From: an uncultured delta proteobacterium
Lineage (GTDB): Bacteria > Myxococcota_A > Polyangia > Polyangiales > Houyiibacteriaceae
NCBI GenBank assembly: GCA_963704865.1
Contig: CAVPIE010000014.1
Span: 69,937-133,936, forward strand
Reading direction: 5' to 3'
DNA length: 64,000 bases
This document shows, piece by piece, positions 10,777 through 38,287 of this stretch; the first letter of the stretch is position 1; each line of letters begins with the position of its first letter. Below the pieces are notes generated by a model. The model did not search any database and was not told where the DNA came from. It worked only from the letters and a program-made list of their open reading frames with translations. The position numbers and the translations under genes were made by a program.

Positions 10777-10877
10777 CGTCCAGATTGGCTAAGAAAAACT
10801 CGGTGGCTTCTCGCGCTAGCAGCGCCCCTGCGGCCTCGCCGTGTGCTTTGGGGAGTCTGTGCTACAAAAGCCGCTTC

Positions 10878-12617
10878 ATGTCTGAGTTACTTTCCCTAGA
10901 GCAGGCCCCCGCGGGCCTCGGCGCCGCCTTGCGCAACGCCGGTTTTGAGAGCTTCACCGCCATCCAGCAGGCCATTTTGGACCCCGGGTTGAAGGGTCGC
11001 GATTTGCGAATTTCCTCCCAAACGGGATCCGGAAAAACGGTGGCCCTGGGGCTGCTCCTGGCGCCCTCCGTCGCGATCGCCGCTGCCACGGCCAAGCCGA
11101 AGAAGTCCCGCAAGTCCATTGCGGCCGCCCCGGTGACTCTGCTCGTCGCCCCGACTCGCGAGCTCGCCGGCCAGCTCGGGCGTGAGCTTCGCTGGCTCTA
11201 CGAACCGCTCGGGGCCCGTGTCCTCGTGGTGACCGGTGGCACCAGCGTGATGCAGGAGCGATATCAGCTGTCCACCCTTCCCCAGGTCGTCATTGGCACT
11301 CCTGGTCGTCTTCTCGATCATCTGAAGGCCGGCGCCCTGAAGCTCGATCAGCTCAAGACCATCGCGCTCGACGAAGCCGATGAGATGCTCGATATGAACT
11401 TCGAGGAGGAGCTCGACGGCATCCTCGGCTTCGCGCCCGAGGCCCGTCGCACCCACCTGGTGTCGGCGACGTTTCCACGCGAAGTGGTGAGACTCGCGGA
11501 CCGGCTCCAGCAAGACGCCGTCTCGGTACAAGGTACGGCGCTCGGCAAGGCGAACGCCGACATCGAGCACCTCGTGATGCACGTCCGCCAAGCTGATCGA
11601 TTCCATGCGGCGATCAACGTCTTGCTCCGCTACCCGGATGACAAGACCCTTCTCTTCGTGCGAACCCGAACGGAAACGGTTCGACTTGCCGATGAGCTTT
11701 GCGCGGCCGGCCTCGCGGCGCGTGCGCTCAATGGCGAAATGACCCAGCGCGAGCGAACCGCGACATTCACTCAGTTTCGAAACGGCGCCGTTCGTTACCT
11801 CGTCGCCACAGACGTCGCGGCGCGCGGCCTCGACGTGCAAGACATCGGCCGGGTGATTCAAGTCGACCTCCCCGACAACGCCGACGTATTCACCCACCGG
11901 AGCGGACGCACCGGGCGAGCCGGACGGCGCGGCACCAACGTGCTGTTTGCGGCCGCGCACGCCGAGCGCCGAGTCCAGAGCACGCTGCGGGCCGCGCGCG
12001 TGGATGCGCGTCTGGTCCCCATTCCGACACCAGAGGAGATTTTCGCGGCCGCCGACGAGCGGACTGGTGAAAGCTTTCTTCGCGACCTCGCGAATCAGTC
12101 CAATGAGCCGGACGGCCGGGCGAAGGATCTAGCCGAACGCCTGCTCGCCGAGCATTCGCCCGCGGAGCTCGTGGCCTGCCTCCTGAAACGAGAAACGGAG
12201 CGCAGCCAAGGAACCCCAAAGCGCGTCCGAGACGATGCCAAGCCCGCACGCCACGAGCGCAGCCCTCGCAAGGTGGGTCCGAAGGGGCAATCGCGGCAGC
12301 GACCACAAGGCGATTTCATCACCTATCAAGTCAGCTGGGGCGGACAGGCGGGCGCTGACACGAGAAAGCTCCTAGCGATGGTCTGCCGGCGAGGCGACGT
12401 GTCGAGCGAAGTCGTGGGCGCGATTCGGGTCTCCCCGAAGAGCTCGACCGTAGACATCTCGGCCAGCGAGGCGCAGCGTTTCGAGCGAGCGGTGGCCCGG
12501 CCGGACAAGCGAAACCCTCGCGCGCAATTCCGGCGATGGGATCCACGCGCCAAGGTGAAACCAAGCGCGAAAGCGAAGCGCCCGCAGCAGAGTAGCAGCA
12601 GCGCCCGTTGCGCCTGA
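10878..12617 (+). CDS. DEAD-box ATP-dependent RNA helicase with DbpA-type C-terminal RNA-binding domain
   Basis: ORF trimmed to MSELLSLEQ (ATG 10878). Motifs SQTGSGKT, PTRELA, DEAD (LDEADEML), SAT, HRSGRTGRAG. C-terminal DbpA-like segment and basic tail. Confidence 0.9.
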   Translation: MSELLSLEQAPAGLGAALRNAGFESFTAIQQAILDPGLKGRDLRISSQTGSGKTVALGLLLAPSVAIAAATAKPKKSRKSIAAAPVTLLVAPTRELAGQLGRELRWLYEPLGARVLVVTGGTSVMQERYQLSTLPQVVIGTPGRLLDHLKAGALKLDQLKTIALDEADEMLDMNFEEELDGILGFAPEARRTHLVSATFPREVVRLADRLQQDAVSVQGTALGKANADIEHLVMHVRQADRFHAAINVLLRYPDDKTLLFVRTRTETVRLADELCAAGLAARALNGEMTQRERTATFTQFRNGAVRYLVATDVAARGLDVQDIGRVIQVDLPDNADVFTHRSGRTGRAGRRGTNVLFAAAHAERRVQSTLRAARVDARLVPIPTPEEIFAAADERTGESFLRDLANQSNEPDGRAKDLAERLLAEHSPAELVACLLKRETERSQGTPKRVRDDAKPARHERSPRKVGPKGQSRQRPQGDFITYQVSWGGQAGADTRKLLAMVCRRGDVSSEVVGAIRVSPKSSTVDISASEAQRFERAVARPDKRNPRAQFRRWDPRAKVKPSAKAKRPQQSSSSARCA

Positions 12618-17255: not shown

Positions 17256-18422
17256 ATGAACATGACCCGACCGATGTTGCGCTTCGTTGCTCAGTTCCTC
17301 CTCTCGCTGTGCTTCCTGATCACGAGCTGCGGCGGTGATGGCTGCGGCGCCGGAGGCTGCAGCGGCCCCGGCGGGCCGACCGACATCGATTTGGAGGTGG
17401 ACGACTTCATCGTCGGCCTCGAAAAGCCCTGGGACATCGCCTGGCTTCCCAACGGGACTGTCTTGGTGACCGAGCGGCCCGGCCGTCTGCATGTCTACGT
17501 CGATGGCGTCGGCGCCGCGCCCTTCGTCGTGGCACCAGACGACGTCGTGCCGCGGGGCGAAGGCGGCATGATGGGGCTCGAGGTCGACCCGGACTTCGCC
17601 AACAACGGCTACGTCTACGTTTGCACCACGTCAAACGCGGGCGGCGACAACGATGTTCGATTGCTGCGGCTCACATTGCGCACCCCCGACGGAGGCGCCG
17701 TGCTTGCGCGCGAGGACATCGTGACGGGGATGCCCTACAGCACGGGACGGCACAGTGGATGTCGGCCGCGCTTCGGGCCGGATGGTTTTCTGTGGATCGG
17801 CACTGGCGATGCGGCAATTGGGACGAACCCGCAAGATGACGACTCCCTTGGCGGAAAAGTGCTCCGCGTCGATCGGGAAGGTGCAGCCGCTCCCGACAAC
17901 GCTGGCGGGTTTCGATGGTACTCGAACGGGCATCGCAACATCCAAGGGATGGCATTTCGATCCGACGGAATCGGGATGTCGGCTGAGCACGGTCCGTCGA
18001 TTGACGACGAAATCAATCGGCTCGTCGCTGGCAACTTCGGCTGGGATCCGGTGCCAGGGTACAACGAGTCGGTGCCGATGACCGATCTAGAGAAGTTCCG
18101 AGCTGCGGTGCCCGCGGTCTGGTCGAGCGGCTCGCCCACCCTCGCGCTGGCGGGGGCGACGTTCCTCGAAGGCAGTGCCTGGGGCAACTGGGCTGGGGCC
18201 CTCGCGGTGGCCACTTTGAAGGCCGAGCACCTGCACATCTACTTCGTCGACGCCGAGGGCGAGGTGACCGGCGAAGAACGCGCCATCGATGACCAAGGCC
18301 GCCTCCGCACACCCCGGCAGGGCCCGGACGGCTTACTCTACATTACCAACGACGGCGGGAGCGGTGATGGCAAAGTCCTGCGCGTGAAACCGGTACCTGC
18401 GGCAAGCTCTGACGCACCGTGA
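17256..18422 (+). CDS. PQQ-dependent sugar dehydrogenase (soluble glucose/sorbosone dehydrogenase family) lipoprotein
   Basis: C-terminal 388 aa of ORF 15834..18422, starting at MNMTRPMLRF..LITSCGG (lipobox). GSDH motifs KPWDIAWLPNGTVLVTERPGRL, GGMMGLEVDPDF, GGKVLRV, NGHRNIQGMAF. Confidence 0.85.
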   Translation: MNMTRPMLRFVAQFLLSLCFLITSCGGDGCGAGGCSGPGGPTDIDLEVDDFIVGLEKPWDIAWLPNGTVLVTERPGRLHVYVDGVGAAPFVVAPDDVVPRGEGGMMGLEVDPDFANNGYVYVCTTSNAGGDNDVRLLRLTLRTPDGGAVLAREDIVTGMPYSTGRHSGCRPRFGPDGFLWIGTGDAAIGTNPQDDDSLGGKVLRVDREGAAAPDNAGGFRWYSNGHRNIQGMAFRSDGIGMSAEHGPSIDDEINRLVAGNFGWDPVPGYNESVPMTDLEKFRAAVPAVWSSGSPTLALAGATFLEGSAWGNWAGALAVATLKAEHLHIYFVDAEGEVTGEERAIDDQGRLRTPRQGPDGLLYITNDGGSGDGKVLRVKPVPAASSDAP

Positions 18423-19312
18423 GCGACGCCTACTACGCAATCGTCAACCGAACGGCGGCTGGCGGACGGTGCGCAAAAGCCGCACCGGAGGCCCTCGATG
18501 CATTGGAGCATCGCGGACTGTCGCTGAAGGTCGCGTTTACCGAGGAGCCGAAGCACGCGACTGAGCTCGCAAGGCGCGCAGCCAGTAACGGTTGTCGGCG
18601 TTTTCTTTCGGTCGGCGGTGATGGAACTGCCGCCGAGGTCGTCAACGGACTCATCGCCTCCGGCGTTGCTGGCGAATGCGCGCTGGCCATGCTTCCGCTC
18701 GGAACGGGCAACTCCTTTTTGCGCGACTTCGGTATCGCCGACCTTCAAGTCGCCGCCGATGCGATCGTTCGAGGCAAGAGCACCCCCATCGACGTGCTCC
18801 GCCTGACGCACGAAGACGGCGTCCTGCATTTCATCAATACGATGGGGACCGGTTTCGTCGCGCGCGCCGGCGAGCTCACCAACGAGCGCTTCAAATTTCT
18901 CGGTGCAGCGGGGTATGTTGCTGCAGTCCTGGTTTGCGTCGTGCGGCTCCGGTACGAAGAGAACACGCTTCGCTATGCGGGCGCGACCGATGAGGCGCGC
19001 ACGGTCCTCAGCTCGTTCTCCAACAGCCAGTACACGGGTGGTTCGATGCGGATGGCGCCGGATGCTCGAGTCGCCGACGGCCTGCTCGACGTCGTTCGGG
19101 CCGGGCCGCTCCGCAGAGCTGCCCTCGTGAGCGCGTTCGCCCGCATCTTTTCGGGAACGCACACCGATCTCGATCAGGTCTGGACGCGGCAAGTCGACCG
19201 GGTGGAATTCGTGAACCCCGCATTTCAAGCCGTGCTGATCGACGGCGACCTCTACCACCTGACGCCCCTTGCGATCGATGTCCTTCCTTCGGCAATCCAG
19301 CTCATCGCATGA
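18419..19312 (+). CDS. diacylglycerol-kinase-family lipid kinase (YegS/BmrU-like)
   Basis: GTG start overlaps the upstream stop (GTGA). GGDGT motif (SVGGDGTAAEVVNGL). LPLGTGNSF. Confidence 0.85.
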   Translation: MSDAYYAIVNRTAAGGRCAKAAPEALDALEHRGLSLKVAFTEEPKHATELARRAASNGCRRFLSVGGDGTAAEVVNGLIASGVAGECALAMLPLGTGNSFLRDFGIADLQVAADAIVRGKSTPIDVLRLTHEDGVLHFINTMGTGFVARAGELTNERFKFLGAAGYVAAVLVCVVRLRYEENTLRYAGATDEARTVLSSFSNSQYTGGSMRMAPDARVADGLLDVVRAGPLRRAALVSAFARIFSGTHTDLDQVWTRQVDRVEFVNPAFQAVLIDGDLYHLTPLAIDVLPSAIQLIA

Positions 19313-20055
19313 CGGAGACCACGACAGCTCGGGATCGAATCGTGAGCCTGTTCATCTGGGTTTTCGCCGGCGGCTTCCTGGTGCTGAGCCTGTCATTTTT
19401 GACGATCCTCTACCAGTTCGTGAAGCCGGACCGCGTTCAGCCCCTCGAACGCCTCTACTGCAAGCTCCAACTCGCACTCACGTTCAACCGGCAGCGCCAC
19501 GACGTGCATCCCGACGTCGACCCCGGCACCGCGTACATTTTCATTCAGAATCACAGCAGCCATCTCGATCACGTCGCGATGTACACGTCTACACCGCATT
19601 TCAAACAAGGCATCGAGCTCGAGAGCCACTTCGACTACCCCTTCTACGGCTGGTTCATGAAGGCGCGCGGAACCATTCCTGTTCCCAAGGATCGAGCAGG
19701 CGCACTCGACGCGCTCCGCGAGGCGGTTCATACCGAAGTCGATGCCGGGCATTCGATCCTCGGCTTTCCGGAGGGACACCGAACCAAGACCGGTCACGTG
19801 GGCCCCTTTTACGACGGCCTGTTTCGAATCGCGATCGAGCTCGGCGTGCCCATCGTGCCCGTCGCGGTGACAGGCCTTTTCGAAGTGCTTCACAAGGGCT
19901 CGCTCGTCATTCGCGCCGGCAACGAAATCAGCGTTTGCGTAGAAGAGCCGATTGCCACCGAAGGTCTCACCGAGCAGGACATCGCGAGCCTACGGGACCG
20001 AGTGCGGGACGCGATTGCAAGCAGGGTCGACGCGCATTTGGAGGCGCTCGCTTGA
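19309..20055 (+). CDS. plsC: 1-acyl-sn-glycerol-3-phosphate acyltransferase family (PlsC-like)
   Basis: ATGA overlap with the lipid kinase gene. HxxxxD box (NHSSHLDH) and FPEGHRT box. Confidence 0.85.
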   Translation: MTETTTARDRIVSLFIWVFAGGFLVLSLSFLTILYQFVKPDRVQPLERLYCKLQLALTFNRQRHDVHPDVDPGTAYIFIQNHSSHLDHVAMYTSTPHFKQGIELESHFDYPFYGWFMKARGTIPVPKDRAGALDALREAVHTEVDAGHSILGFPEGHRTKTGHVGPFYDGLFRIAIELGVPIVPVAVTGLFEVLHKGSLVIRAGNEISVCVEEPIATEGLTEQDIASLRDRVRDAIASRVDAHLEALA

Positions 20056-27610: not shown

Positions 27611-28992
27611 CACTCGTATTTGCGGCTCTGCAACTCCTTCTTCTCCTCCCCATGGCCTGGTTCGTCGCGCGCTCGCCCTCGTCACGAACAGCCCGTCACC
27701 GCGCTAGCTACGCGATGGGTCTCACCGGCTTGCTTGCGCTCACCCACGTCAGCTGGCGCGTACTAGGAGCTCCCATGCTCGAGCGATCCGCCGACTGGGT
27801 CGCGATGGAGGACCCGCACTCCTGGGCTCCCGCATTCTCGTTGATTACCTGCCTGATCGGCTATGCCGCGATCGTCCTCAGTCCAATTCGTGGAACGCGT
27901 CCAAAGACATTCGCGAGGATTTTGCTTCTCATCGCGATCGCGTTGGTCTTCCTGGTCATTCGCCATCCGATCGGGCTTGCCGTCCTCTGGGGCGCTTCGG
28001 CGCTCATCGTGTGGCTCGAGTTACGAGAGATGCGACGAACTCGAAGTACGGCGAGGTTATTCGCCATTTATCATGTGCCGAGTGTCGTCGCGCTTGGAAT
28101 CGGCGCGGTGCTGCTCAGTCGAGGCGAGTCCACGGTTGGGCTCGTGTTTCTCCTCGCCGGCATCGGAATTCGCGAAGCCGTGATCCCGCTCCACAGTTGG
28201 TTCCCCCCGTTCGTGCAATACGCACCCATGGGACTCGTTGTGGCGTTCTTTGCACCACAACTGGGCGTCTATGCGCATCTCGAGTTGCTCCGAGGGGAGC
28301 TCCCGTCGCAACTTGCTCACGGGGTGGCGTCTCTCGGTGCGATCACTGCGGTGGTCGCCGCAGCTCTCGGCATTGCACAAACGGACGCGCGGCGCGCGCT
28401 CGCATTCTTGATAATGAGCCAGACAGGGCTCGTGGCCTTCGGCCTGGATACGAGCTCTCCCGTTGCCCAGATTGGCGCATTGCTCACATGGCAAGTGATA
28501 GGGGTGGCAACCGCCGGCTTCGCAATGACGCTCGCCTCTCTCGAAGCCCGGCGTGGGAATCTTTCGGTCAATGTCCCGGGCGGGAGTTTCACCCGAACGC
28601 CGCGCATGGCTGTCGCTTTTCTCTTCATGGGTTTTGCAAGTGTGGGCCTGCCGCTGACGCTCGGTTTCGTAGCCGAAGACCTCTTGGTTCAGGGATCGGT
28701 CGATGAGTTCCCACTACTTGCCTTTGCATTGATCGCCGCGACGGCGCTCAACGGGATCGCTGTGATGCGAGCGTTCTTCACGTTGTTCAGCGGATCTTCC
28801 AAGCACATTGGGGAACGTGACCTGACCAGACGTGAAGCAGCCGTACTGACGATGTTGATGGCCACGCTCCTCATCATGGGTCTGTTTCCGGGGCAGACCG
28901 TTCGGCGGCTCGAGCGCGTCACCGAGGGTGATGCCCAGCCCGTTACCGTCGTCCAGACGCTCGACGTCTCGCCCGACGCGCAACGGCCTTGA
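27607..28992 (+). CDS. second, divergent NuoM/N- or MrpD-like antiporter-type membrane subunit
   Basis: ATGA overlap with dabB. About 13 TM helices. Degenerate version of the PF00361 core (IPLHSWFPPFVQYAPMGLVVAFFAPQLG in place of ..LH.WLP.AMEGPTP..). Confidence 0.7.
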   Translation: MTLVFAALQLLLLLPMAWFVARSPSSRTARHRASYAMGLTGLLALTHVSWRVLGAPMLERSADWVAMEDPHSWAPAFSLITCLIGYAAIVLSPIRGTRPKTFARILLLIAIALVFLVIRHPIGLAVLWGASALIVWLELREMRRTRSTARLFAIYHVPSVVALGIGAVLLSRGESTVGLVFLLAGIGIREAVIPLHSWFPPFVQYAPMGLVVAFFAPQLGVYAHLELLRGELPSQLAHGVASLGAITAVVAAALGIAQTDARRALAFLIMSQTGLVAFGLDTSSPVAQIGALLTWQVIGVATAGFAMTLASLEARRGNLSVNVPGGSFTRTPRMAVAFLFMGFASVGLPLTLGFVAEDLLVQGSVDEFPLLAFALIAATALNGIAVMRAFFTLFSGSSKHIGERDLTRREAAVLTMLMATLLIMGLFPGQTVRRLERVTEGDAQPVTVVQTLDVSPDAQRP

Positions 28993-29860
28993 ACACGCGC
29001 TGAAACATCGCGGCGTCGCCGCTTGCCGGCTTGCGCTGGTCTTTTTTGTCACCCGACTCTGGGTAGAGCTGGTATGCGGCGTTCAGGATGCGATCGACGG
29101 CATTCGGCGCCACCCCATAGGCGAATTCGAATAGATTTCCGACAGGGGTGGCCACCCGTTTTGGCTGACGGACGATGCCGTCCGCCACTAGGTCGGCAGC
29201 TTCTTGGGCGCTCCGCATCGGAAACGAGTCGTAGATCGTCGTCGATTTCATCATCGGCGTCTTGACCAACGGCATGTAGATCGTCGTGACCTTGACCCCG
29301 TCCTTCAGCGCTTCGACTGCCAGGACTCGGCTAAATGCGTCGAGTGCCGCTTTGCTCGCGATGTAAGCGCCGTAGCGCGGAACGTTCACCTGGACCCCGA
29401 TCGTCGACACGTTGAGGATCTGCCCGCTCTTCTGTGCGCGCATACCCGGAAGAAATCCCATGATGAGACGCACCGCGCCCAAGAAATTGAGAGCGAGCGT
29501 CCGCTCGAAGTCGTGCACCCGATCGTAGGACTTGGCGACACTTCGGCGAATCGAAATTCCTGCATTGTTGACGAGGATGTCGACTTGGCCGTGGTCAGCA
29601 AGAATGGCGGCGATCAGACGCTCGGTGTCCTCGGCGTTCGATAAGTCGCCAGGATACGCGAATGCCGTTCCGCCGCGCCCCTCGATGCTCTTCTTCATAT
29701 CTTCGAGCTTGTCGGCGGATCGGGCGACGAGCAGGACCTTTGCCCCGGCGTCCCCCAATCGATTGGCCAGCGCTTCCCCAATCCCGCTCGAAGCGCCGGT
29801 GATCGCGACGGCACGGCCGGAAACCCGTTCGCGCAAGGCGCTATCTTCGGAGTCGGTCAC
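28943..29860 (-). CDS. short-chain dehydrogenase/reductase (SDR), classical family with C-terminal extension
   Basis: C-terminal 305 aa of ORF 28943..30376, with a GTG at 29860 (or a TTG at 29836). ITGASSGIGEAL, NNAG, YGAYIASKAAL (YxxxK). The 3' end overlaps the convergent 27607..28992 gene by 50 nt. Confidence 0.8.
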   Translation of the reverse strand: MTDSEDSALRERVSGRAVAITGASSGIGEALANRLGDAGAKVLLVARSADKLEDMKKSIEGRGGTAFAYPGDLSNAEDTERLIAAILADHGQVDILVNNAGISIRRSVAKSYDRVHDFERTLALNFLGAVRLIMGFLPGMRAQKSGQILNVSTIGVQVNVPRYGAYIASKAALDAFSRVLAVEALKDGVKVTTIYMPLVKTPMMKSTTIYDSFPMRSAQEAADLVADGIVRQPKRVATPVGNLFEFAYGVAPNAVDRILNAAYQLYPESGDKKDQRKPASGDAAMFQRVFKAVARRARRRASGRR

Positions 29861-30629
29861 CGGCGAAGCGTAGCCCAGTCGATGCGCTCTGCGGCGAAAA
29901 ACATTTGTTAATCGTCGATCTCGCGGCCATGCAGGCGTTGAATGTGTCGGGCGTTGTCGCCCTCGACGAGGTGAATGCGTTTGTCTGAGCCGGCCCGGCG
30001 TCGACGCTCTGCACATCCAAGCCCGGACCAAGCACGTCTTCGACAAACACCCCCTCGAGCTCTGCCGAACGGCCTTCCTCCGTCGGAATGGCATCGAGGA
30101 ACTCATCGATGAATTGATTCGACTTCCCCATCCGAAAGAGAAGTGCAACGACCAAGTAGTTGGGCGGATCATCGGCCGAAAGACCAGGACGTGAATGCAC
30201 CAAGTGCATCTCCATGGGATAGGTGATGCCGTCGACGAGATGCTCAGAAGGCGTGTGAAAATGAAGCTGCATGAACTCGTAGCTGTTGCCGTCGAACTCC
30301 GTCGTGGTGCCCGTGCGGAAGTCGAGCTGCACGGTGTGTCCGAGATTCTGTACCTGGTCTGCGCCATCTCCAGCATTGAGATGGATGGTGTGCCTCCCCT
30401 CTTCGGCCTCGCCGGAAAGGATGTTCACGGGGGACTGGAGTAGTCCATGCTCCAGGCCGGGAAGCGCGTAGTAGTGACCAGATGCCGACTCGCCGCCCGA
30501 GCCCTTGGACTTCTTCGCAGATACGACTGCCGCGTCGCATGGGGGACAAGACTTGGAAGCACAGCCCATGCCAGTCATGAAGACCATCAGCGTTCCGAGG
30601 GCGCTGCCGAGGACACTTCGTGAGCTCAT
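29841..30629 (-). CDS. alpha-carbonic anhydrase lipoprotein, with a possibly frameshifted or decayed 3' end
   Basis: Lipobox MTGMGC. Exact alpha-CA signature SEHLVDGITYPMEMHLV with the HFH..H zinc histidines. No GSLTTPPC/Thr199 loop downstream in this frame (see findings). Confidence 0.75.
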   Translation of the reverse strand: MSSRSVLGSALGTLMVFMTGMGCASKSCPPCDAAVVSAKKSKGSGGESASGHYYALPGLEHGLLQSPVNILSGEAEEGRHTIHLNAGDGADQVQNLGHTVQLDFRTGTTTEFDGNSYEFMQLHFHTPSEHLVDGITYPMEMHLVHSRPGLSADDPPNYLVVALLFRMGKSNQFIDEFLDAIPTEEGRSAELEGVFVEDVLGPGLDVQSVDAGPAQTNAFTSSRATTPDTFNACMAARSTINKCFSPQSASTGLRFAGDRLRR

Positions 30630-30715: not shown

Positions 30716-32431
30716 TCAGGGCAAGCGGCGTTGGTCATCGGGCAGGTCGAGCGCGAGGGTGCCGCCTGGGTTGAGCACGTTCCGGGGATCGAAGTGCCGC
30801 TTGAGGGCCCGAAACACCTCGAGCTCATTGCGTCCGATCTGGCCTTCCAGCCATGGCGCGGTCATTTTTCCGATGCCGTGGTGGTGACTCATCGTGGCGC
30901 CGGAAGCCTGGACGGCATCGAGGATGCCGCGGTGAAACTCCAAGAACTCCTGGTGACCCATTTTCGCGATGAAGATGAAGTATAGATTCGCGCCCTGCGG
31001 ATAACAGTGGGACATGTGCGTCATGCAGACGGTCTGCGGTCGGCTCTTGACGTACGCCCGAACGTGCTGGTGCACTTTCGGAAGCTCGTCCCAATTGGTG
31101 GCGCACTCGAGGGTGTCGATGAGAATGCCGTAATCCTGCAGGTCCTCGCGCATGTACGGATCGGTAAAGCGGCCGTGCTCCCACTTCTTGGTGATGAACC
31201 CGGTGGTGTACATCCCGCCATGCGCGCTGCAGACTTGTCGGAGTCGGCGTTTGACCATTGCCGTATAGGCGCGGTCTCCGTCGACCGTTCCGAGCATCAG
31301 GCAACGCTCGCCCTTTTTGAAACCCCGCAGGCTGACGAGCGTGTCGATCGGCGTGCCCTCGACCCCATAGAGCTTGAAGGCGACGTCGGTTTCCTCGGGG
31401 TCGGAAAGTCGAAAGACCGATGGAACACCAAACTGACCCTGCATGATCTCTCGGACCGCAGCCGTCCCGCTCTGCCAATTCGGAAAGATAAAGCTGAAGC
31501 GGCGCGTGTTCTCAGGCTGATAGCGAAAAATTTTCAGGGTCACCGCCACCAAAATCCCGTACGCCCCTTCGCTTCCGATCATGATCTGATCGAGGTTGGG
31601 GCCGGTCGAATACGCGGGGACATCGACGGTTTTGATCGTGCCAACGGGTGTGATGTACTCCTGGCTCAGCACCAGATCTTCGGCCTTGCCGTAGTACGTC
31701 GAATTCTGCCCGGCGCCGCGTGTCACCACCCAGCCTCCTGCCGACGAAAACTCGAACGACTGCGGGAAATGACCGCAGGTATACGCATGCGGTGCGTTGA
31801 AACCCTCGCGCGCACCGTTGAGGGCTGCTTCGAGATCGGGCCCTAGAATACCGGGCTCCACCGTGACCGTTTGATTCACGACATTGAGGGACAGGATGCG
31901 CTTCATATGCGTGCCGAGATGGATTGAAACCCCGGCTCTCACGCACTCGGTGCCGCGGGTGACACTCGAGCCCGCCGCGTAAGTGTAGAGAGGAATTTCC
32001 TGCTCGTGGCAGTAGCGAACGATCTGCTCGACATCGTCGCGGTCGCGCGGGTGCAGCACCAGGTCGGGAAGATTCTCTACTTCGTGGTCACGCAGGCGAA
32101 GCGCGTCGACCATCGTCTTGCCGTACGACACGCGGAGCCTCGAGTAGACATCGTCGCTCACGTTCTCATCACCCAGCAAACGGCGGAAGAAGCCAACCTG
32201 CTCGGAGCTGAGCGAAATCGGAGCGTCCGCTGTCACCTCTTCGAGGCCTAGCTTCTGTGGCTTCTCGAAGTGCTCGTCCCCGATTCCGAACGTCTCTTTC
32301 ATCAAGGCGTAGAGTCGCGGATTCGGGTGCTTGTAGGCCTCTGGCGCTCCCCACTTGAACGCCGAACGATAAGAGCGCTTTGGAAGCGTTCCCTCGAACC
32401 ACTGCGGAGTGAAGGAATCCTGGTCCGTCAT
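30716..32431 (-). CDS. alkyl-dihydroxyacetonephosphate synthase-like FAD-linked oxidase (AGPS)
   Basis: ORF trimmed to MTDQDSF (ATG 32431, ATGA overlap with the upstream gene). FAD_binding_4 region. AGPS-type motifs SVFRLSD, SHCYPQGANLYFIF, HHHGIGK. Confidence 0.85.
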   Translation of the reverse strand: MTDQDSFTPQWFEGTLPKRSYRSAFKWGAPEAYKHPNPRLYALMKETFGIGDEHFEKPQKLGLEEVTADAPISLSSEQVGFFRRLLGDENVSDDVYSRLRVSYGKTMVDALRLRDHEVENLPDLVLHPRDRDDVEQIVRYCHEQEIPLYTYAAGSSVTRGTECVRAGVSIHLGTHMKRILSLNVVNQTVTVEPGILGPDLEAALNGAREGFNAPHAYTCGHFPQSFEFSSAGGWVVTRGAGQNSTYYGKAEDLVLSQEYITPVGTIKTVDVPAYSTGPNLDQIMIGSEGAYGILVAVTLKIFRYQPENTRRFSFIFPNWQSGTAAVREIMQGQFGVPSVFRLSDPEETDVAFKLYGVEGTPIDTLVSLRGFKKGERCLMLGTVDGDRAYTAMVKRRLRQVCSAHGGMYTTGFITKKWEHGRFTDPYMREDLQDYGILIDTLECATNWDELPKVHQHVRAYVKSRPQTVCMTHMSHCYPQGANLYFIFIAKMGHQEFLEFHRGILDAVQASGATMSHHHGIGKMTAPWLEGQIGRNELEVFRALKRHFDPRNVLNPGGTLALDLPDDQRRLP

Positions 32432-33609
32432 GCTTTCTCTCTTTCCGTCGGTTTGACCGGCATGTCCCACGGCGTTCCCATGAGCGCCAGCTTCATTCGC
32501 ATGAGCCTCGAAGGCTGGACGCGATTGGGCCGTAGCGGCAACTGATGCTCCTCGATGAGCCCCGAATCGAGCCCGTCGACCAGCTCGATCGAGCCGTAGG
32601 GCCGCAACAACTCGTCGACCGCCTTCCGATTGGGCTCGCTGAGACGCCGATACTCGTTTTGAAGCACTTCGAGACAATACACGCGGTAGCGCACGACCTT
32701 GAGATTGCGATACGTGACGCCGTGCGCTTGGTGGTCGACTCGTGCTTGCCCAGCTGCCCAGGCGCGCGCATTCCGCAAGAGGAATGGCCAGTAGCTCTGT
32801 GCGATCTCGCGCAGGAAGTACTCCCACCCCGGTTGTGAAAAATCGCTCAGGATAGGCTCCCGCCCAAGGCGATGCGCCCGCGCGTTCCACACTCGCCCGA
32901 CCCAGGCGTAAACCGCTGGCGCGCGCTCCATCATGACGCGGCTCGGCGTGGGGTCCTGCGCGTAGTGCCGAAACATCGGCCCGAACACGCCGATGTCGAC
33001 GAGTGTCGGATGACTACCAAGCAGATACGGCTGCGCCTCGAGGAGCTCGCTCATGGCGTCGAGCAGGTCGAGGTACTGTTGCTTCACCTCTGGCTCCGTT
33101 TCGGCGCTCAGACCGTCACCGCGCAAGTATGTCGCCATCTGGCGGCGTCCGTAATACCAGCCGGCGAACCACTTGGGCGCCGGGAAATCGGCCAGCACCT
33201 CGTGCCCGATGCGATGCATGAGAAGCTTTCGTGACTCAACCGGTTGCCAGCGCCAATAGAGCGCCGCCCGCCAGCACCATTCGTCCGCGTAGTCCTCGAC
33301 CAGCTTCGACATGAAGCGGAGGACGGGGTCCCGGGGGATCACCGGCGACTCTGGATACGCCGAGTCGAGCCAGTCGATCATCGGCGTCGTGTCTTTGAGC
33401 CACTGCCCATTGGCCAGGCGCAGCACCGGCACCTTCATGAGCCCGGTGGCCGGAAGGATCTCGTTGCGCATGACTTTCATGTCGACGACCCGTCGCTCGA
33501 AGGGAATCTCCTTGTAACGAAGGTAAGCTTCCATCTTCCCGCTGAAATACGACATGTCCGCGACGTACGCGGTGATCGGCTCCCAATCGGGATGTCGTGA
33601 CTCAGCCAT
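32428..33609 (-). CDS. glutathione S-transferase-like protein with an extra C-terminal domain
   Basis: ORF trimmed to MAESRHPDWEP (ATG 33609). GST-N-like thioredoxin fold (SYFSGKMEAYLRYKEIPFERRVVD..KVPVLRLANGQWLKDTTPMIDWL) and GST-C-like helices. About 150 additional C-terminal residues of unknown type. Confidence 0.65.
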   Translation of the reverse strand: MAESRHPDWEPITAYVADMSYFSGKMEAYLRYKEIPFERRVVDMKVMRNEILPATGLMKVPVLRLANGQWLKDTTPMIDWLDSAYPESPVIPRDPVLRFMSKLVEDYADEWCWRAALYWRWQPVESRKLLMHRIGHEVLADFPAPKWFAGWYYGRRQMATYLRGDGLSAETEPEVKQQYLDLLDAMSELLEAQPYLLGSHPTLVDIGVFGPMFRHYAQDPTPSRVMMERAPAVYAWVGRVWNARAHRLGREPILSDFSQPGWEYFLREIAQSYWPFLLRNARAWAAGQARVDHQAHGVTYRNLKVVRYRVYCLEVLQNEYRRLSEPNRKAVDELLRPYGSIELVDGLDSGLIEEHQLPLRPNRVQPSRLMRMKLALMGTPWDMPVKPTEREKA

Positions 33610-33714
33610 GGGTGTTCCTCCAGCTATTCCGGATCGAGTCTTGAGAGAGGCACGGTAACATGTCACAGGACTCGCGGATGCTCTTGCAGGAATGCGAGCG
33701 CTAGGGAGCCAAGC

Positions 33715-34494
33715 ATGGACCAACGAGAAACGGCATTGATCACCGGCGCCTCGATGGGCATCGGCAAAGAGCTGGCAAGGATCTTCGCATCGGACGGCCG
33801 GGACCTGGTGCTGGTCGCGCGCAGCGAAGACAAGCTTCAAGGCTTGGCGCAGGAGCTCGAGGGCGCGCATGGAATTCGCGCACACGTCGTGCCCGCGGAC
33901 CTCACCGACCCAGGCGCGCCGGCCCGCATCTTTGCCGTACTCCAAAGCGAGGGGCTCGAGGTCGACTATCTGGTCAACAATGCCGGCTTCGGCGCGAACG
34001 GCCCGTTCGCGGGGCTTCCCCTCCAGTCACAGATGGACATGCTCCAGGTCAACATCGATGCGTTGGTCGCGCTCACTCACCTTGCCCTGCAAGGCATGCT
34101 CGCTCGCAAAAGGGGACGAATCTTGAACATCGCATCGACTGCCGGCTTTCAACCAGGGCCAGACATGGCAGTGTACTACGCGACCAAGTCATTCGTGCTC
34201 CTGTTCTCCGAAGCAGTTGCAGAAGAGGTCAAGGACGCCGGCGTCACGGTGACCGCGCACTGTCCCGGCGCGACGGTGACCAACTTTGCTGGCACCGCGG
34301 GGAACGACAAGAGCATCCTTTTCAAGCTCGGGGCCGCGCCGGCCGACAGAGTGGCCAGGCATGCCTACCGTTCGATGATGAAGGGCAAAGTCGTCGCCAT
34401 CGAGGGCTGGCTGAACTGGCTGACTGCATTCAGCGTGCGGTTCAGCCCACGATTTCTGGTTCGCAAACTCGCCCGCTGGATGAACAAAACATGA
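33715..34494 (+). CDS. SDR-family oxidoreductase with a hydrophobic C-terminal tail
   Basis: ITGASMGIGKELA, NNAGFG, YYATKSF (YxxxK). C-terminal WLNWLTAFSVRFSPRFLV amphipathic or membrane segment. Confidence 0.85.
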   Translation: MDQRETALITGASMGIGKELARIFASDGRDLVLVARSEDKLQGLAQELEGAHGIRAHVVPADLTDPGAPARIFAVLQSEGLEVDYLVNNAGFGANGPFAGLPLQSQMDMLQVNIDALVALTHLALQGMLARKRGRILNIASTAGFQPGPDMAVYYATKSFVLLFSEAVAEEVKDAGVTVTAHCPGATVTNFAGTAGNDKSILFKLGAAPADRVARHAYRSMMKGKVVAIEGWLNWLTAFSVRFSPRFLVRKLARWMNKT

Positions 34495-35198
34495 TCGACA
34501 CGCGATTCTTTTCACTTCTGGGGCCGCTGGCGCTGCTTCTTTTCGGTTCGGTGGCATCGGCGCAGGGAGCCTGGTCCTACGAGCCCTCTCAAACTTCGCC
34601 CTACACGACTCGCCCGGTTGAACAGTACCCGCCTCAGCCATCCGCCGAGCAGCGAGCCTCGCACCGGGGCTATCAGGGCTCTTTCAGCCTTGGGGTCCCC
34701 ATATGGTTGAAGGCCGACAGAGACGTGGTCCGACCGGGCGCGGATCTGAACGGCTTCGGCGGCTTCGACATGGGCTACGTGGTTTTCGGCCTCGGGCTCG
34801 GCGCAATGTGGACGCCGATCAACTTCTACAACATCCCCGGCATCGACCCGGGCTTTGACCGTCGGCCGATGACCCGCCTCTACCTCGCGCCCGAGGTGCG
34901 CGTTCAGGTGCCAAACAACACCCCTCTCCTGCCGTATCTGGGCATCAGCTTCGATGCGAACTGGTGGCGCGTAGCGGAAACGAACGTGGTCTGCACCGGC
35001 AACTTTTACTATTACTGCGCACGAATCGCAGTCTTCCGCTTCACTCCCGGCATGACCGCGAAGATAGGTCTCGCGATCCGGGTAGCGAGCGGAAGCTACA
35101 TCGACCTCGGCGTCAAATACTCGCTGACGGGGCCTGGTAGCTTTTTCTTTCAGCGCGAGCAGTGGGTCACGCCGTACGTGGGCTTGCTCTTTCGCTGA
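34491..35198 (+). CDS. hypothetical secreted protein, possibly an outer-membrane beta-barrel
   Basis: ATGA overlap with the SDR gene. Signal peptide (LLGPLALLLFGSVASAQG). Alternating aromatic/Gly beta-strand-like pattern ending in ..PYVGLLFR. Confidence 0.5.
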   Translation: MIDTRFFSLLGPLALLLFGSVASAQGAWSYEPSQTSPYTTRPVEQYPPQPSAEQRASHRGYQGSFSLGVPIWLKADRDVVRPGADLNGFGGFDMGYVVFGLGLGAMWTPINFYNIPGIDPGFDRRPMTRLYLAPEVRVQVPNNTPLLPYLGISFDANWWRVAETNVVCTGNFYYYCARIAVFRFTPGMTAKIGLAIRVASGSYIDLGVKYSLTGPGSFFFQREQWVTPYVGLLFR

Positions 35199-35200
35199 GC

Positions 35201-36409
35201 CTAGACGTACTTCTTGAGCTCGAGCCGCGCGACCATGCCGCGGTGCACTTCATCCGGGCCGTCGGCAATTCGTAGAGCGCGCGCCATCGCCAGCAGGCGC
35301 GTGAGCTCGAGGTCGGACATACCCTCACCGCCATGGATCTGAATCGCCGCATCGACCACCGACTGCAGCACATTGGGCGCGATGACTTTGATGGCGGAGA
35401 TGTCGACCAAGGCGCCGAAGGTGCCCATCGTGTCGAGCGCCCAGGCGGCCTTCATCGTCAGGAGACGGGCCTGGTCGATCGCCATGCGGCTGTTCGCAAT
35501 GATGTCTCGGTTGCCGCCGAGGTTCGAAAGCGGTTTGCCGAAAGCGACCCGAAGCACGGCGCGCTGGCAGAGGCGCTCGAGGGCTCGCTCCGCCGCGCCG
35601 ATCGCCCGCATGCAGTGATGGATGCGTCCAGGCCCGAGGCGGCCTTGGGCGATTTCGAAGCCACGGCCCGGCCCTGCGACGATGGCGCTCACCGGAAGAC
35701 GCACGTCGTCGAAAAGCACCTCGGCGTGCCCGTGTGGCTCATCGAGGTGACCGAACACGGGCAACATTCGCAGAACCTTCACGCCCTTGGCGTCGGCGGG
35801 CACCAGCACCATCGAATGACGTTCGTGGCGGCTGGCATTTGCATCGGTGACGCCCATGAAAATGTAAAAGCCGCAGCGGGGATCACCGGCCCCACTCGTC
35901 CACCACTTTTGGCCGTTGAGCACGACTTCGTCACCAACGACCTCGCAAGTGGCTTGCATGTTGGTCGCATCGCTCGATGCGACTGCCGGTTCTGTCATGG
36001 CAAAGGCGGAACGGATTTTCCCATCGAGGAGCGGCTCGAGCCACCGTTTCTTCTGCTCGTCAGAACCGTACTTCACCAGGACCTCGGCGTTGCCCGTATC
36101 GGGCGCGCTGCAGTTGAACACCTCCGGCGCCAGAAAGCTTCGCCCAGTGATCTCGGCGACGGGCGCGTAGTCGCGGTTGTCCAGGCCGGCACCGTACTCC
36201 TCGTCGGGCAAGAAGAGGTTCCAAAGCCCGAGCTCTTTTGCTTCGGCTTTTAGCTCTTCGACGATTGGGGGAATCTTCCAGTCTCGCCAATCGTCGGTGC
36301 CGACGAGCTGGTCGAGATAGGTCTGCTCGTTGGGCACGACGCGCTCGCGGACGAAACGCTCCGCCTGCGCCATCACGTTTTGAGCCCGCTCGGAATGCGT
36401 GAAATCCAT
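35201..36409 (-). CDS. acyl-CoA dehydrogenase (ACAD10/11-FadE2-like)
   Basis: [18 protein letters not shown], and the three typical ACAD domains are readable. Confidence 0.9.
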
Positions 36410-36502
36410 AGTTGGGGTTGATACCGCATGCGTCGAGACAATTCACGCGGGAAGTATGCAGTTCCGGTGCTAGGTTTCGCCGAACTGAGGAAGCCGAAGC
36501 AC

Positions 36503-38287
36503 ATGGCAACACGAAGCAATCCCCTGATCGACGATGGTCTCGTCGATTTTCTTCTCTACTCGGTGCTCGACGCCGAGTCGCTCTGCGAGCTCGAAGCCTA
36601 TCGGCAGCACTCCAAGGAGACGTTCGACCTCTACATCGACAGCGTCCGGCGATTCTCGCGTCAGGACCTCCTGCCTACATACAAGCCGATGGATGAAGAG
36701 CCTCCGGTGTTCCGCGACGGGCGAATCCGTACCCATCCCGCACTGCCCGAGCTTTACGAAAAGATGATCGACCTAGGGGTGCTCACCGCGACCCGCCCCG
36801 AATCGCTCGGTGGTCAGCAGATGCCCATGCTGATCCACTGGATGGCGAGCGCGTACCTCATGGCGGCCAACCTGAGCGCGTACGGTTACATCGGTCTGAC
36901 CTTGGGGGCGGGGCATTTGATCGAAGCCTTTGGTTCCGATGAGGTCAAAGAGCTCTTCTTGGCGCGCATGTATGAAGGTGAGTGGACCGGGACAATGGCC
37001 CTCACCGAGCCACAGGCCGGAAGCAGCCTCGGCGACATCAACACGACGGCAACGCCTACGAACGACGGTCACTACCTGATCAAGGGCAGTAAGATCTTCA
37101 TCTCCGGTGCGGATCACGGCATCACCGACAACGTCGTCAACCTCACCCTGGCCCGAATCAAAGGCGCGCCCGAGGGGACCAAGGGGATTTCTTTGTTCGC
37201 AATCCCGAGGCTTCGTGAAGAAGACGGTCGCCTCGTCTCCAACGACGTGACGGTGGCCGGCATGATTCACAAGATCGGTTGGCGGGGACTTCCAAGCCTG
37301 GCGTTGGAGTTCGGCGACGAAGGCGACTGCAGGGGCTGGCTCGTCGGAGAACCCAATCAAGGCCTTCGCTGCATGTTTCAGATGATGAACGAGGCCCGCA
37401 TCATGGTGGGCGTCAACGGCTTTGCTACGGCTTCGGCTGCGTATCACGAGTCGCGACTTTACGCGCTCGACCGCAAGCAGGGGCGCACGCCGGGCCGGCG
37501 CGACGGCGAACAGGTATCGATCGTCGAGCACGCCGACGTTCGTCGGATGCTGTTGCGCCAAAAAGCAATCATCGAGGGCAGCCTGGCCTTGCTAGGCACC
37601 GTCTCGCGCTACGCGGACGTCGCTGCGCATGGCGCATCGGAAGAGGACCGGGAGCGCGCTGGTCTGTTGCTCAACTTGCTCACCCCAGTTGCGAAGACCT
37701 TTCCCGCCGAGCGAGGCTTCGAATCCAATGTGCTCTCTGTTCAAATCCACGGCGGCTACGGCTACACGAGCGAATACCTTCCCGAAGCCTACATGCGTGA
37801 TCAGAAGCTGAACACGATTCATGAAGGAACCAATGGGATCCAAAGCATGGATCTGCTCGGCCGGCAGGTCATGTCCAAAGGCGGTGCCCCGCTGCGGGCG
37901 TTGGCCGAGGAGATCGGCCTTACGATTGCTCGTGCGCGGGAAGCGGGCTGCGATCCGGCGCTTTGTTCACCCCTCGAAGACGCGGTCGCCACGGTCGGCG
38001 CCATCACCATGGAGCTCGGCCAGCGCGGCATGGCCGGAGATGCGGACGGCATGCTCGGCCACAGCTGGGACTACCTCGACATGTTCGCAACCCTCGTCAT
38101 CGGCTGGCAATGGCTCAAGATGGCCGCTTCGGCGCGTACCGCGCCTATTTCCGAGAAGCGCAGACATGGGACCGACGCAGCGGCGCAGTATTGGATCCGG
38201 ACTGAGGTCCCACGCATCCCACTGCTCGCGGAGCTCTGCCGCTCCAACGAGGACTCTTACATCCGGGCGGAACAGGACTGGTTCTAG
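36503..38287 (+). CDS. long acyl-CoA dehydrogenase with extra C-terminal domain
   Basis: ORF trimmed to MATRSNPL (ATG 36503). [49 protein letters not shown]. About 170 aa C-terminal extension. Confidence 0.85.

Follow-up and report, generated by a model that had tools for sequence, protein, structure and literature searches.

An AGPS-like flavoenzyme in a conserved operon with GST-like and acyl-CoA-reductase-like genes: a possible glycerolipid module in a sediment myxobacterium

In the 64,000 nucleotides of DNA analysed here (the window), from a sediment myxobacterium (Polyangiales), a relative of AGPS lies in a tight operon with genes for GST-like and fatty-acyl-CoA-reductase-like proteins. 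The conserved core of the locus consists of three co-directional genes on the minus strand, which encode, in order, a 393-residue GST-like protein (32428-33609), a 571-residue AGPS-like FAD enzyme (30716-32431) and an Acr1/AcrB-like SDR that we term SDR2 (28943-29860). Seventeen related contigs (designated by L numbers below) show this gene order as well, and the arrangement is therefore more than chance; because only close relatives supply this synteny, it may nonetheless reflect shared ancestry more than selection. Our tentative reading, in which we place somewhat less than even confidence, is that the operon forms a lineage-specific glycerolipid module around the AGPS-like flavoenzyme, most likely making alkyl-DHAP, the ether-lipid precursor.

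The flavoenzyme itself contains SHCYPQGANLYF and HHHGIGK, together with the Pfam domains FAD_binding_4 and FAD-oxidase_C, and its earlier identification as a genuine AGPS homologue stands: the Dictyostelium AGPS structure (PDB 2uuu) matches it over its full length (residues 29-556, E 1.4e-65, approximately 30% identity), as does guinea-pig AGPS (E 4e-53), while glycolate and D-lactate oxidases reach only about 1e-24. Common to the window protein and eukaryotic AGPS/ADPS (EC 2.5.1.26; Dictyostelium 2UUU, guinea pig 4BBY) are the fold, the length and the N-terminal extension, the catalytic Tyr of the SHxY motif (here SHCY; Y508 in Dictyostelium), the HHH loop (HHHGIG) and the catalytic Arg, found here in KWEHGRF (PMC3509576). 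The identity is nevertheless only about 30%, the window protein is not peroxisomal, and the proteins encoded beside it are not orthologous to FAR and GNPAT.

A parallel in gene content is offered by Myxococcus xanthus, in which MXAN_1676-1675-1674 encode AGPS, a FAR-GNPAT fusion ('FARAT') and an NAD epimerase-family protein, and in which genetic work has demonstrated a role for MXAN_1676 in ether lipids (PMC9131029, PMC13012113). In both loci a myxobacterial AGPS homologue is accompanied by an enzyme of the acyl-CoA-reductase type and an acyltransferase of the PlsC/GNPAT type; in the window, however, an Acr1/AcrB-type SDR is found instead of the FAR-type domain, the AGPS-FARAT arrangement is absent, the acyltransferase is a protein of its own, encoded alongside a lipid kinase, and a GST-like gene heads the operon. 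MXAN_1676, which is 42% identical to human AGPS (PMC9131029), is also much closer to the animal enzyme than is the window protein, at about 30% to validated AGPS. The enzyme is not of the validated MXAN_1676/eukaryote type and belongs instead to a broad bacterial AGPS-like family associated with GlpD, FGGY and YegS proteins (PMC8151288; PMC9131029). In other bacteria, members of that family usually occur beside genes for a GlpD-like dehydrogenase, an FGGY kinase that is not GlpK, FadR-like regulators and a YegS kinase (56/78 loci). The GliR regulon of P. aeruginosa (PA3026-PA3025-PA3024-PA3023: an AGPS-like oxidoreductase, a GlpD homologue, an FGGY kinase and a YegS kinase; PMC8151288) looks like part of the same broad family, a likeness drawn from gene context and not from sequence; by comparison, the window clade is without the GlpD-like and FGGY genes and has gained the GST-like protein, the Acr1-like SDR and a PlsC-like acyltransferase.

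The gene that closes the operon, SDR2 (305 residues, GTG start), is found downstream of AGPS in every relative whose contig reaches that far (it is truncated in L090), with gaps of 14-77 nt in L010, L018 and L002. Its entire sequence aligns with the reductase half of the AcrB profile (NCBIfam NF005539, PRK07201; positions 360-648 of 657, E 7e-109) and also with PRK05866 (E 9e-81), a likeness that extends to Acr1 of Acinetobacter, to FCR2/Rv1543 and to the C-terminal half of AcrB/Maqu_2507 and FCR1/Rv3391 (PMC3522743, PMC11948995); SDR2 differs from AcrB-type reductases in having no N-terminal aldehyde-reductase domain and in scoring below both curated cut-offs. PRK07201 serves as the profile of alcohol-forming acyl-CoA reductase, although Acr1-like SDRs vary in function (PMC11948995), and the single-domain relatives Rv1543 and Acr1 reduce acyl-CoA (PMC3522743). 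SDR2 could equally be an acyl/alkyl-DHAP reductase instead of an acyl-CoA reductase. Between AGPS and SDR2 lies an alpha-carbonic-anhydrase ORF (29841-30629, minus strand) that is truncated relative to the Pfam Carb_anhydrase model, covering only positions 15-177 of 254; it occupies the same position in L004, L019, L089, L093 and L094, is missing in L002, L005, L007, L010, L018 and L091, and is a remnant that interrupts the operon here and probably stands outside the lipid module.

Two further genes of lipid metabolism, which had been overlooked in the preliminary description, are found together at 18419-20055 on the plus strand. They encode a YegS/Rv2252/BmrU-family lipid kinase (18419-19312; Pfam DAGK_cat and YegS_C), which scores 149.8 bits against TIGR00147, above its cut-off of 118.65, and a 248-residue PlsC-type acyltransferase (19309-20055; Pfam Acyltransferase, E 5e-20; below the cut-off of TIGR00530), the two genes overlapping by 4 nt (19309-19312). 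The acyltransferase orthologue in L004 displays the HxxxxD (NHTSHLDH) and FPEGHRT motifs. In relatives the acyltransferase is 66-78% identical and adjoins SDR2, and the pair abuts SDR2, convergent with the operon, in L004, L005, L009, L018 and L090. In the ancestral layout the kinase/PlsC pair converged on the operon, and insertion of a DctP gene and a SulP-DAB segment has displaced it by 9 kb in the window.

On the other side of the operon, the junctions are as they had been described. The ATG of the AGPS-like gene, at 32431, overlaps the stop codon of the GST-like gene as ATGA (string GCATGACG); a spacer of 105 nt (33610-33714) separates the GST-like gene, whose own ATG is preceded 7 nt upstream by GGAGG, from a divergent SDR gene (33715-34494, plus strand); and that gene is coupled, again through ATGA, to an ORF of 235 codons (34491-35198, plus strand). 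No sigma-70 consensus promoter was found in the 105-nt spacer. The divergent SDR is a classical one of 259 residues with an amphipathic C-terminal tail (adh_short, E 1.7e-47), and its best NCBIfam match is a mycolate reductase (161 bits, against a cut-off of 380). The 235-residue protein, correctly recognized as secreted and beta-rich, has a signal-peptide-like N-terminus (..VASAQG) and no match in Pfam or among PDB sequences; its model is all-beta but of low confidence (pLDDT 56), and the best PDB folds are all 8-stranded outer-membrane barrels (NspA, OmpA, PagL, OmpX and OmpW), making it a probable 8-stranded outer-membrane beta-barrel (OMP).

This divergent cassette is a dispensable later insertion, often lost, that stands outside the module. 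Among 18 relatives, the SDR is intact in 10, fragmented in 4 (L002, L088, L089 and L133) and absent from 4 (L001, L004, L018 and L091); the OMP gene is absent from L005, L009, L018 and L090; and in L018, the most basal relative, an acyl-CoA dehydrogenase (ACAD) gene, GST, AGPS and SDR2 are contiguous, with neither the divergent SDR nor the OMP. The proposal that the divergent SDR supplies the alkyl/acyl-DHAP reductase is weakened by its decay or absence in 8/18 relatives, and SDR2, which lies beyond the region that the preliminary description covered, is the better candidate.

With the operon of GST-like protein, AGPS-like enzyme and SDR2 as the functional unit, a pathway can be envisaged in which SDR2 would convert acyl-CoA to a fatty aldehyde or alcohol, the PlsC-like enzyme would acylate DHAP (or 1-alkyl-G3P), the AGPS-like enzyme would use its flavin, Tyr and HHH loop to replace the acyl group at C1 by the alcohol, and the YegS-type kinase would phosphorylate an (alkyl)acylglycerol. 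Animals, with FAR, GNPAT and AGPS, and M. xanthus, with MXAN_1676/1675, have parallel sets of reductase, acyltransferase and AGPS (PMC9131029, PMC13012113). Of the ether-lipid module first suggested for this region, a role in lipid or ether-lipid metabolism stays plausible around a real AGPS homologue, while its SDR/OMP arm is not conserved and its GST-like member is no general AGPS factor.

The GST-like protein comprises a GST core (residues ~12-242), to which the Pfam matches GST_N_3 and GST_C_2 are confined (residues 15-240 of 393), and, as had been noticed, an extra C-terminal domain (~245-393), which is private to this family. Its AlphaFold model (pLDDT 94) matches only GSTs in the PDB, and these over the core only, with LigF at the top (E 2.5e-7), although the fold scores do not separate LigF from other GST classes and the beta-etherase model yields 24.5 bits against a cut-off of 440. 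With the Ser-type cytosolic GSTs (Tau class; the LigF/LigE beta-etherases) it shares the thioredoxin-like and helical fold, a Ser at the catalytic position (the invariant Ser20, aligned with that of the Tau class), the cis-Pro (P61) and a GSH-site Thr (T75), the latter two also invariant; it differs from them in its roughly 150 additional C-terminal residues. Because the catalytic-type Ser and the GSH-site residues are kept and the protein is co-translated with AGPS, it probably is active as a thiol-dependent partner that was recruited a single time, in one subclade of the Polyangiales.

The distribution of the pairing bears on that role. GST and AGPS genes are adjacent in 17/17 contigs in which AGPS is at least 84% identical, with a junction that is always a 4-nt overlap or a gap of at most 55 nt, and the pairing is confined to a single subclade of the Polyangiales. 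AGPS genes of the next closest relatives (65-76% identity) have no GST gene beside them and function without it, and 66/83 GST-family loci have no AGPS, their immediate neighbours being a mixture of SDRs, metallo-beta-lactamase-fold proteins, sulfatases, alkylsulfatases and LysR regulators; the GST is therefore not the general AGPS accessory factor that had been envisaged. These same observations, and a GST tree on which about one gain and one loss suffice to explain the linkage, are what would be expected if the AGPS-like enzyme and SDR2 (alone or together with the kinase and acyltransferase) were the unit and the GST a co-transcribed but unrelated passenger of general detoxification or redox function, placed upstream by chance in one lineage. 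We consider this unlikely: adjacency persists in all 17 contigs despite insertion of the carbonic-anhydrase gene, the DctP gene and the DAB operon nearby and decay of the SDR/OMP cassette, and the uniformly short junctions argue for maintained co-expression.

A different objection concerns the direction of metabolism, as the family's partners (GlpD-like, FGGY, FadR-like and YegS proteins) and an associated phospholipase C fit glycerolipid turnover at least as much as synthesis. The module might accordingly serve salvage, remodelling or catabolism and not de novo ether-lipid synthesis, with the YegS-type kinase phosphorylating acyl- or alkyl-glycerol, SDR2 running the acyl/alkyl-DHAP reductase reaction backwards to oxidize the lyso-lipid phosphate to acyl/alkyl-DHAP, and the AGPS-like enzyme exchanging or removing the C1 substituent, so that the freed fatty alcohol or acid passes to neighbouring acyl-CoA dehydrogenases. 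Two such dehydrogenases flank the locus in all relatives; one, ACAD1 (35201-36409, minus strand, as is the GST; Pfam Acyl-CoA_dh_N/M/1), is 90-97% identical across all of them and in L018 (6760-7965) precedes the GST, which starts at 8001, by 36 nt. One AGPS homologue of 73% identity adjoins a gene of the YhhN family, which we take to be the lysoplasmalogenase family. Across the wider family, kinases and a GlpD-like dehydrogenase are found nearby, in some cases joined by a FadR-like regulator (185 bits against a cut-off of 189), and in P. aeruginosa the homologous operon is induced together with a phospholipase C and a YegS kinase while being dispensable for growth on glycerol (PMC8151288). 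Against this stand the absence of GlpD-like and FGGY genes from the window and from every GST-linked locus, the best match of SDR2, which is to acyl-CoA reductases that act on thioesters and so accords with a supply of alcohol for synthesis, and the anabolic type of the PlsC-like acyltransferase, and on balance turnover seems a rather doubtful alternative. Less probable still is a soluble substrate, a C1-substituted DHAP or polyol phosphate, to which the FGGY/GlpD setting in other loci might point, with the lipid-like neighbours coincidental; while the FGGY kinases of AGPS-like loci score best as xylulokinase-like and not GlpK (240-272 bits, below the cut-off), YegS-type lipid kinases and FadR-like regulators recur with the family (PMC8151288), and in this clade an Acr1-like reductase is present as well, along with a PlsC-like acyltransferase.

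Whether its flux runs toward alkyl-DHAP, as we tentatively favour, or toward turnover, the locus is an undescribed variant, narrow in its distribution, of a set of bacterial lipid genes.

A GST-like gene, an AGPS-like gene and an Acr1-like SDR gene (here termed SDR2) form a conserved operon on the minus strand of the window. The 393-aa GST-like gene (32428-33609, minus strand), preceded by a GGAGG sequence 7 nt 5' of its ATG, runs into the 571-aa AGPS-like gene (30716-32431, minus strand), which contains SHCYPQGANLYF and HHHGIGK and whose ATG overlaps the TGA of the GST-like gene in the junction sequence. Across a 105-nt spacer (33610-33714) lie a divergent SDR gene of 259 aa (33715-34494, plus strand; Pfam adh_short) and a 235-aa ORF (34491-35198, plus strand) that overlaps it by ATGA. 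The ORF map and the junctions agree with every sequence statement of the preliminary description, including the genes, their ATGA couplings and the length of the spacer. A promoter and terminator scan returned no promoter-like sites, and terminator-like sites at the rate of shuffled sequence; the only metatranscriptome linked to a sample containing the stretch shared none of the sampled words with it. The stretch occurs in metagenomes of marine and estuarine sediment.

The AGPS-like protein carries the domain pair of VAO/PCMH-type flavoenzymes (Pfam FAD_binding_4, E 1.3e-28; FAD-oxidase_C, E 1.6e-33), and its best match among solved structures is Dictyostelium AGPS (2uuu, E 1.4e-65, query residues 29-556), with guinea-pig AGPS matching at E 4e-53. 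Glycolate and D-lactate oxidases trail, with E values near 1e-24 and alignments that begin only at residue ~121, and the AGPS-specific N-terminal extension is present, the start of the 2uuu alignment pairing residue 29 of the query with residue 41 of the chain. The HHHGIG sequence aligns with HHHGVG of the Dictyostelium enzyme, in a loop that we take to be a catalytic feature of AGPS. SHCY aligns with SHTY, which contains Tyr508, and KWEHGRF aligns with TWAEKRY, placing an arginine opposite Arg447; these two Dictyostelium residues are, respectively, the proposed base and the catalytic arginine (PMC3509576). For Arg352 of that enzyme, an inconsistent offset in chain numbering left no unambiguous counterpart in the alignment. 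The structure matches and the conserved SHxY, arginine and HHH residues mark the protein as a true AGPS homologue. With an identity to Dictyostelium AGPS of about 30% over 515 columns, it appears to be more distant from validated AGPS than is MXAN_1676, which is ~42% identical to human AGPS (PMC9131029).

In the GST-like protein, the Pfam N-domain (GST_N_3) and C-domain (GST_C_2) are restricted to residues 15-240 of 393, and the last ~150 residues constitute a domain that, in a library-wide search, turned up nowhere but at the C-terminal end of members of this family. In the AlphaFold model (pLDDT 94), helices follow a beta-alpha-beta-alpha-beta-beta-alpha domain, and a PDB fold search gave 457 matches at E <=0.001, the best 50 of which all belong to the GST superfamily and cover the core only. 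The beta-etherase LigF is the top fold match (E 2.5e-7), with a lead over other GSTs that is not meaningful; identity as a LigE/LigF beta-etherase was rejected, given these unspecific fold scores and a score of 24.5 bits against the NF042997 cut-off of 440. Across an alignment of 60 sequences, Ser20, Tyr21, Ser23, Lys59, Pro61 and Thr75 do not vary, nor does an EDYADEW block, and the marks of the superfamily are present among these residues: a serine at the catalytic position (Ser20, which aligns with the catalytic Ser13 of the Tau-class GST 4j2f in a profile alignment), a cis-proline (Pro61) and a GSH-site threonine (Thr75). Because of these invariant residues, the Ser20 match and the confident GST model, the protein looks like an active, GSH-using enzyme, as a prediction from sequence and model.

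The family to which it belongs, some 390 aa in length and well conserved, comprises at least 1208 clusters and occurs in more than 584 species genomes, with hosts in Myxococcota, marine and soil Gamma- and Alphaproteobacteria, Leptospirales, Solirubrobacterales and others. Clustering of the ORFs in 80 loci and a Pfam tally of 90 immediate neighbours revealed no consistent partner for the family, and the immediate neighbours of GST genes that are not linked to AGPS are heterogeneous. Alkylsulfatase neighbours are restricted to Nevskiales-type genomes and some other Pseudomonadota: in six loci (L027, L032, L037, L041, L077 at approximately 9170-10890, and L039), an SdsA-type alkylsulfatase with metallo-beta-lactamase and Alkyl_sulf_dimr/Alkyl_sulf_C domains lies directly before or after the GST-family gene, and enzymes of this type, too, set long-chain alcohols free.

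The reach of the GST-AGPS pairing was delimited from both sides. Among 80 GST-family genome loci (comparison contigs and loci here carry handles from L001 to L170), AGPS follows GST in L002-L010, L018 and L019 alone; this order is absent from L011-L017, although their GST proteins are still 74-77% identical, and from all of about 60 more distant loci. Conversely, the GST gene is present in all 17 upstream-reaching contigs whose AGPS is at least 84% identical (both sets counted), and AGPS homologues at 65-76% identity are found without it: two of these loci (L086, L168) have a divergent GlpD-like gene, one (L170) a GlpA-like/FGGY set, and one (L169) YhhN and PcrB neighbours. A maximum-likelihood tree built from 84 proteins of the GST family groups the AGPS-linked members in one nearly monophyletic subclade of Polyangiales, and the AGPS-linkage label requires two changes on that tree. 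The adjacency counts, the tree and the heterogeneous neighbours of unlinked GST genes together argue that the pairing is real and stably kept, and that it had a single recent origin through recruitment of a stand-alone enzyme that already existed. Full-text searches of the literature yielded no account of such a GST-AGPS linkage, and the ether-lipid papers concerned are silent on glutathione.

An HSP-level comparison of synteny across 21 related contigs placed SDR2 (305 aa, GTG start; 28943-29860, minus strand) downstream of AGPS in every relative with coverage, truncated only in L090 and separated from AGPS by 14-77 nt in L010, L018 and L002. In the window its start overlaps the tail of an alpha-carbonic-anhydrase ORF (29841-30629, minus strand), which lies between AGPS and SDR2 there and in five relatives and is absent from others; this limited presence and a partial match (Pfam model positions 15-177 of 254 only) suggest that the ORF is an insertion that came along with the DAB module and is now decaying. 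SDR2 matches NCBIfam NF005539/PRK07201 over positions 360-648 (E 7e-109; 365 bits against a cut-off of 549, the C-terminal half being all of the model that it can match) and PRK05866 at E 9e-81 (271 bits against a cut-off of 368). PRK07201 is a profile that has been applied to AcrB, an alcohol-forming fatty acyl-CoA reductase (PMC11948995), and the single-domain enzymes Acr1 and Rv1543 correspond in alignment to the reductase portion at the C-terminal end of Rv3391 and Maqu_2507 (PMC3522743). A homologue search with SDR2 returned only generically named SDRs, all of them 83-95% identical.

A further gene pair belongs to the ancestral arrangement. In relatives, a lipid kinase of ~297 aa and an acyltransferase of ~250 aa converge on SDR2, which they abut in L004, L005, L009, L018 and L090; in L008, L091 and L094 one or two genes intervene, including one that is DctP-like. 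The window encodes proteins 76% and 75% identical to that pair: a YegS/Rv2252/BmrU-family lipid kinase (18419-19312, plus strand), above the TIGR00147 cut-off, and a PlsC-type acyltransferase (19309-20055, plus strand), which has a PlsC domain, scores below the subfamily cut-off and overlaps the kinase gene by 4 nt. A DctP gene and a SulP-DAB operon sit between them and SDR2 in the window, and the pair is ancestrally linked to the GST-AGPS-SDR2 operon.

The divergent SDR had been proposed as the alkyl/acyl-DHAP reductase of the module, and a check of the synteny of GST, AGPS and SDR separated the two halves of that description: while the GST-AGPS linkage was kept in all 17 close relatives, the linkage to the divergent SDR failed. 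The gene is intact in 10 relatives, fragmented or internally deleted in L002, L088, L089 and L133, and absent from L001, L004, L018 and L091 (that is, degraded or missing in 8 of 18), its linkage to AGPS being less conserved than that of SDR2; its best NCBIfam match, a mycolate reductase, falls well under the cut-off. Its candidacy as the pathway's alkyl-DHAP reductase (EC 1.1.1.101) was rejected because of this decay. The companion gene for the 235-aa protein is missing from L005, L009, L018 and L090, and only a stub of it remains in L001. Pfam and PDB sequence searches with that protein were empty; its N-terminus, which resembles a signal peptide, and a model of low confidence that is all-beta and for which the best folds are 8-stranded outer-membrane barrels make the earlier designation 'putative outer-membrane protein' reasonable, and a link to the lipid genes was not upheld. 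Since ACAD1, GST, AGPS and SDR2 are contiguous and on the same strand in L018, which is the most basal of the linked lineages, the SDR/OMP cassette, which is decaying in several lineages, is suggested to be a later insertion.

Beyond the cassette, two acyl-CoA dehydrogenase genes (ACAD1 and ACAD2; window 35201-38287) are the most conserved flank, 90-100% identical in relatives, and in L018 the first of them adjoins the GST gene and reads in the same direction. Two contigs of a single MAG (L002 and L019) each carry the whole ACAD2-ACAD1-OMP-SDR-GST-AGPS-SDR2 block, which could reflect mixing within the bin or a genuine duplication; L019 is near-identical to the window in places, with a GST identity of 66% over residues 87-393 that is perhaps due to masking.

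The AGPS-like protein is itself a member of a far larger bacterial family, with thousands of homologues of ~570 aa recovered in a protein search and identities of 62-65% persisting in unrelated phyla; M. tuberculosis Rv2251 presumably belongs to it as well. Family context was examined in 87 loci around AGPS-like homologues, by clustering of neighbour ORFs and annotation of representatives. Outside the window's clade, a GlpD-like FAD dehydrogenase neighbours the AGPS-like gene in 38 loci and an FGGY kinase recurs in 31, the latter being, by its scores, not GlpK, because its best score is xylulokinase-like and under every curated cut-off. Clostridia-type loci carry a GlpA-like/DUF1667 set, a DAGK/YegS kinase is an occasional neighbour, and GntR/FadR-type regulators are sometimes nearby (one scoring 185 bits against a FadR cut-off of 189). 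By tblastn, a GlpD-like or FGGY gene was found in 56 of 78 AGPS-like loci outside the GST-linked set, and neither in the 64-kb window nor in any GST-linked locus. One AGPS-like gene of 73% identity (L169:5187-9368) is flanked by the region of a PcrB-family gene, of the prenyl-glyceryl-phosphate ether synthase type, and by a convergent gene of the YhhN family, which we take to be that of lysoplasmalogenase; this lone example hints at turnover of ether lipids.

The prevailing arrangement of AGPS-like, GlpD-like and FGGY genes is also that of P. aeruginosa PA3026-PA3023, a set under GliR that has been described without a function and with which phospholipase C is co-induced (PMC8151288). A lipid kinase of the YegS/Rv2252 family is common to the window and to P. 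aeruginosa (PA3023, PMC8151288). Unlike that arrangement, the genetically validated operon of M. xanthus pairs AGPS with a FAR-GNPAT fusion (PMC9131029, PMC13012113).

Against this background, the interpretation in the preliminary description needs to be re-centred on GST-AGPS-SDR2 and the kinase/acyltransferase pair. Because the combination of reductase, acyltransferase and AGPS mirrors that of FAR, GNPAT and AGPS, synthesis of alkyl-DHAP-derived lipids, for which SDR2 would supply the fatty alcohol, is the preferred function by analogy, and is put forward tentatively, at somewhat less than even chances. The partners of the wider AGPS-like family and the acyl-CoA dehydrogenases flanking the locus leave room for a role in salvage or catabolism, which is considered rather unlikely. 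The GST-like protein, earlier envisaged as an accessory factor to AGPS, may act as a thiol-dependent partner integrated into the module, or may be a passenger.

A chemically suggestive but quite improbable further scheme takes its lead from the lignin beta-etherase (Lig) pathway, in which an SDR acts ahead of a GST, and regards the operon as a GSH-dependent system that cleaves or exchanges the ether or ester linkage at C1 of glycerolipids, with the keto-ether alkyl-DHAP as the object of a similar SDR-then-GST order. The SDR would oxidise 1-alkyl(acyl)-glycerol-3-phosphate to its 2-keto form (alkyl/acyl-DHAP), the AGPS-like enzyme and the Ser-type GST would open the bond beside the ketone, with GSH serving as the nucleophile or resolving a flavin-DHAP adduct, and the freed fatty alcohol would enter the adjacent acyl-CoA dehydrogenase route. 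If true, this would constitute the first function for the GST-like family, and a bacterial cleavage of ether lipids independent of oxygen and pterin.

While bacterial AGPS-type clusters are already known, the GST-AGPS-SDR2 form is new and narrowly distributed, and annotators should not assign the neighbouring SDR and OMP genes to its pathway. Bacterial ether-lipid formation is poorly understood beyond the Myxococcus elb and AGPS/FARAT systems, and the bacterial AGPS-like family typified by P. aeruginosa PA3026 is very widespread and without known function. In the Polyangiales form, the usual kinase and dehydrogenase partners are exchanged for an acyl-CoA-reductase-like SDR, an acyltransferase/lipid-kinase pair and a conserved GST-like enzyme, a compact set of five genes that could be expressed in order to probe what AGPS-like enzymes do. 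For the ~390-aa GST family, which marine and soil bacteria carry in more than 580 species genomes, the locus provides the only functional lead so far.
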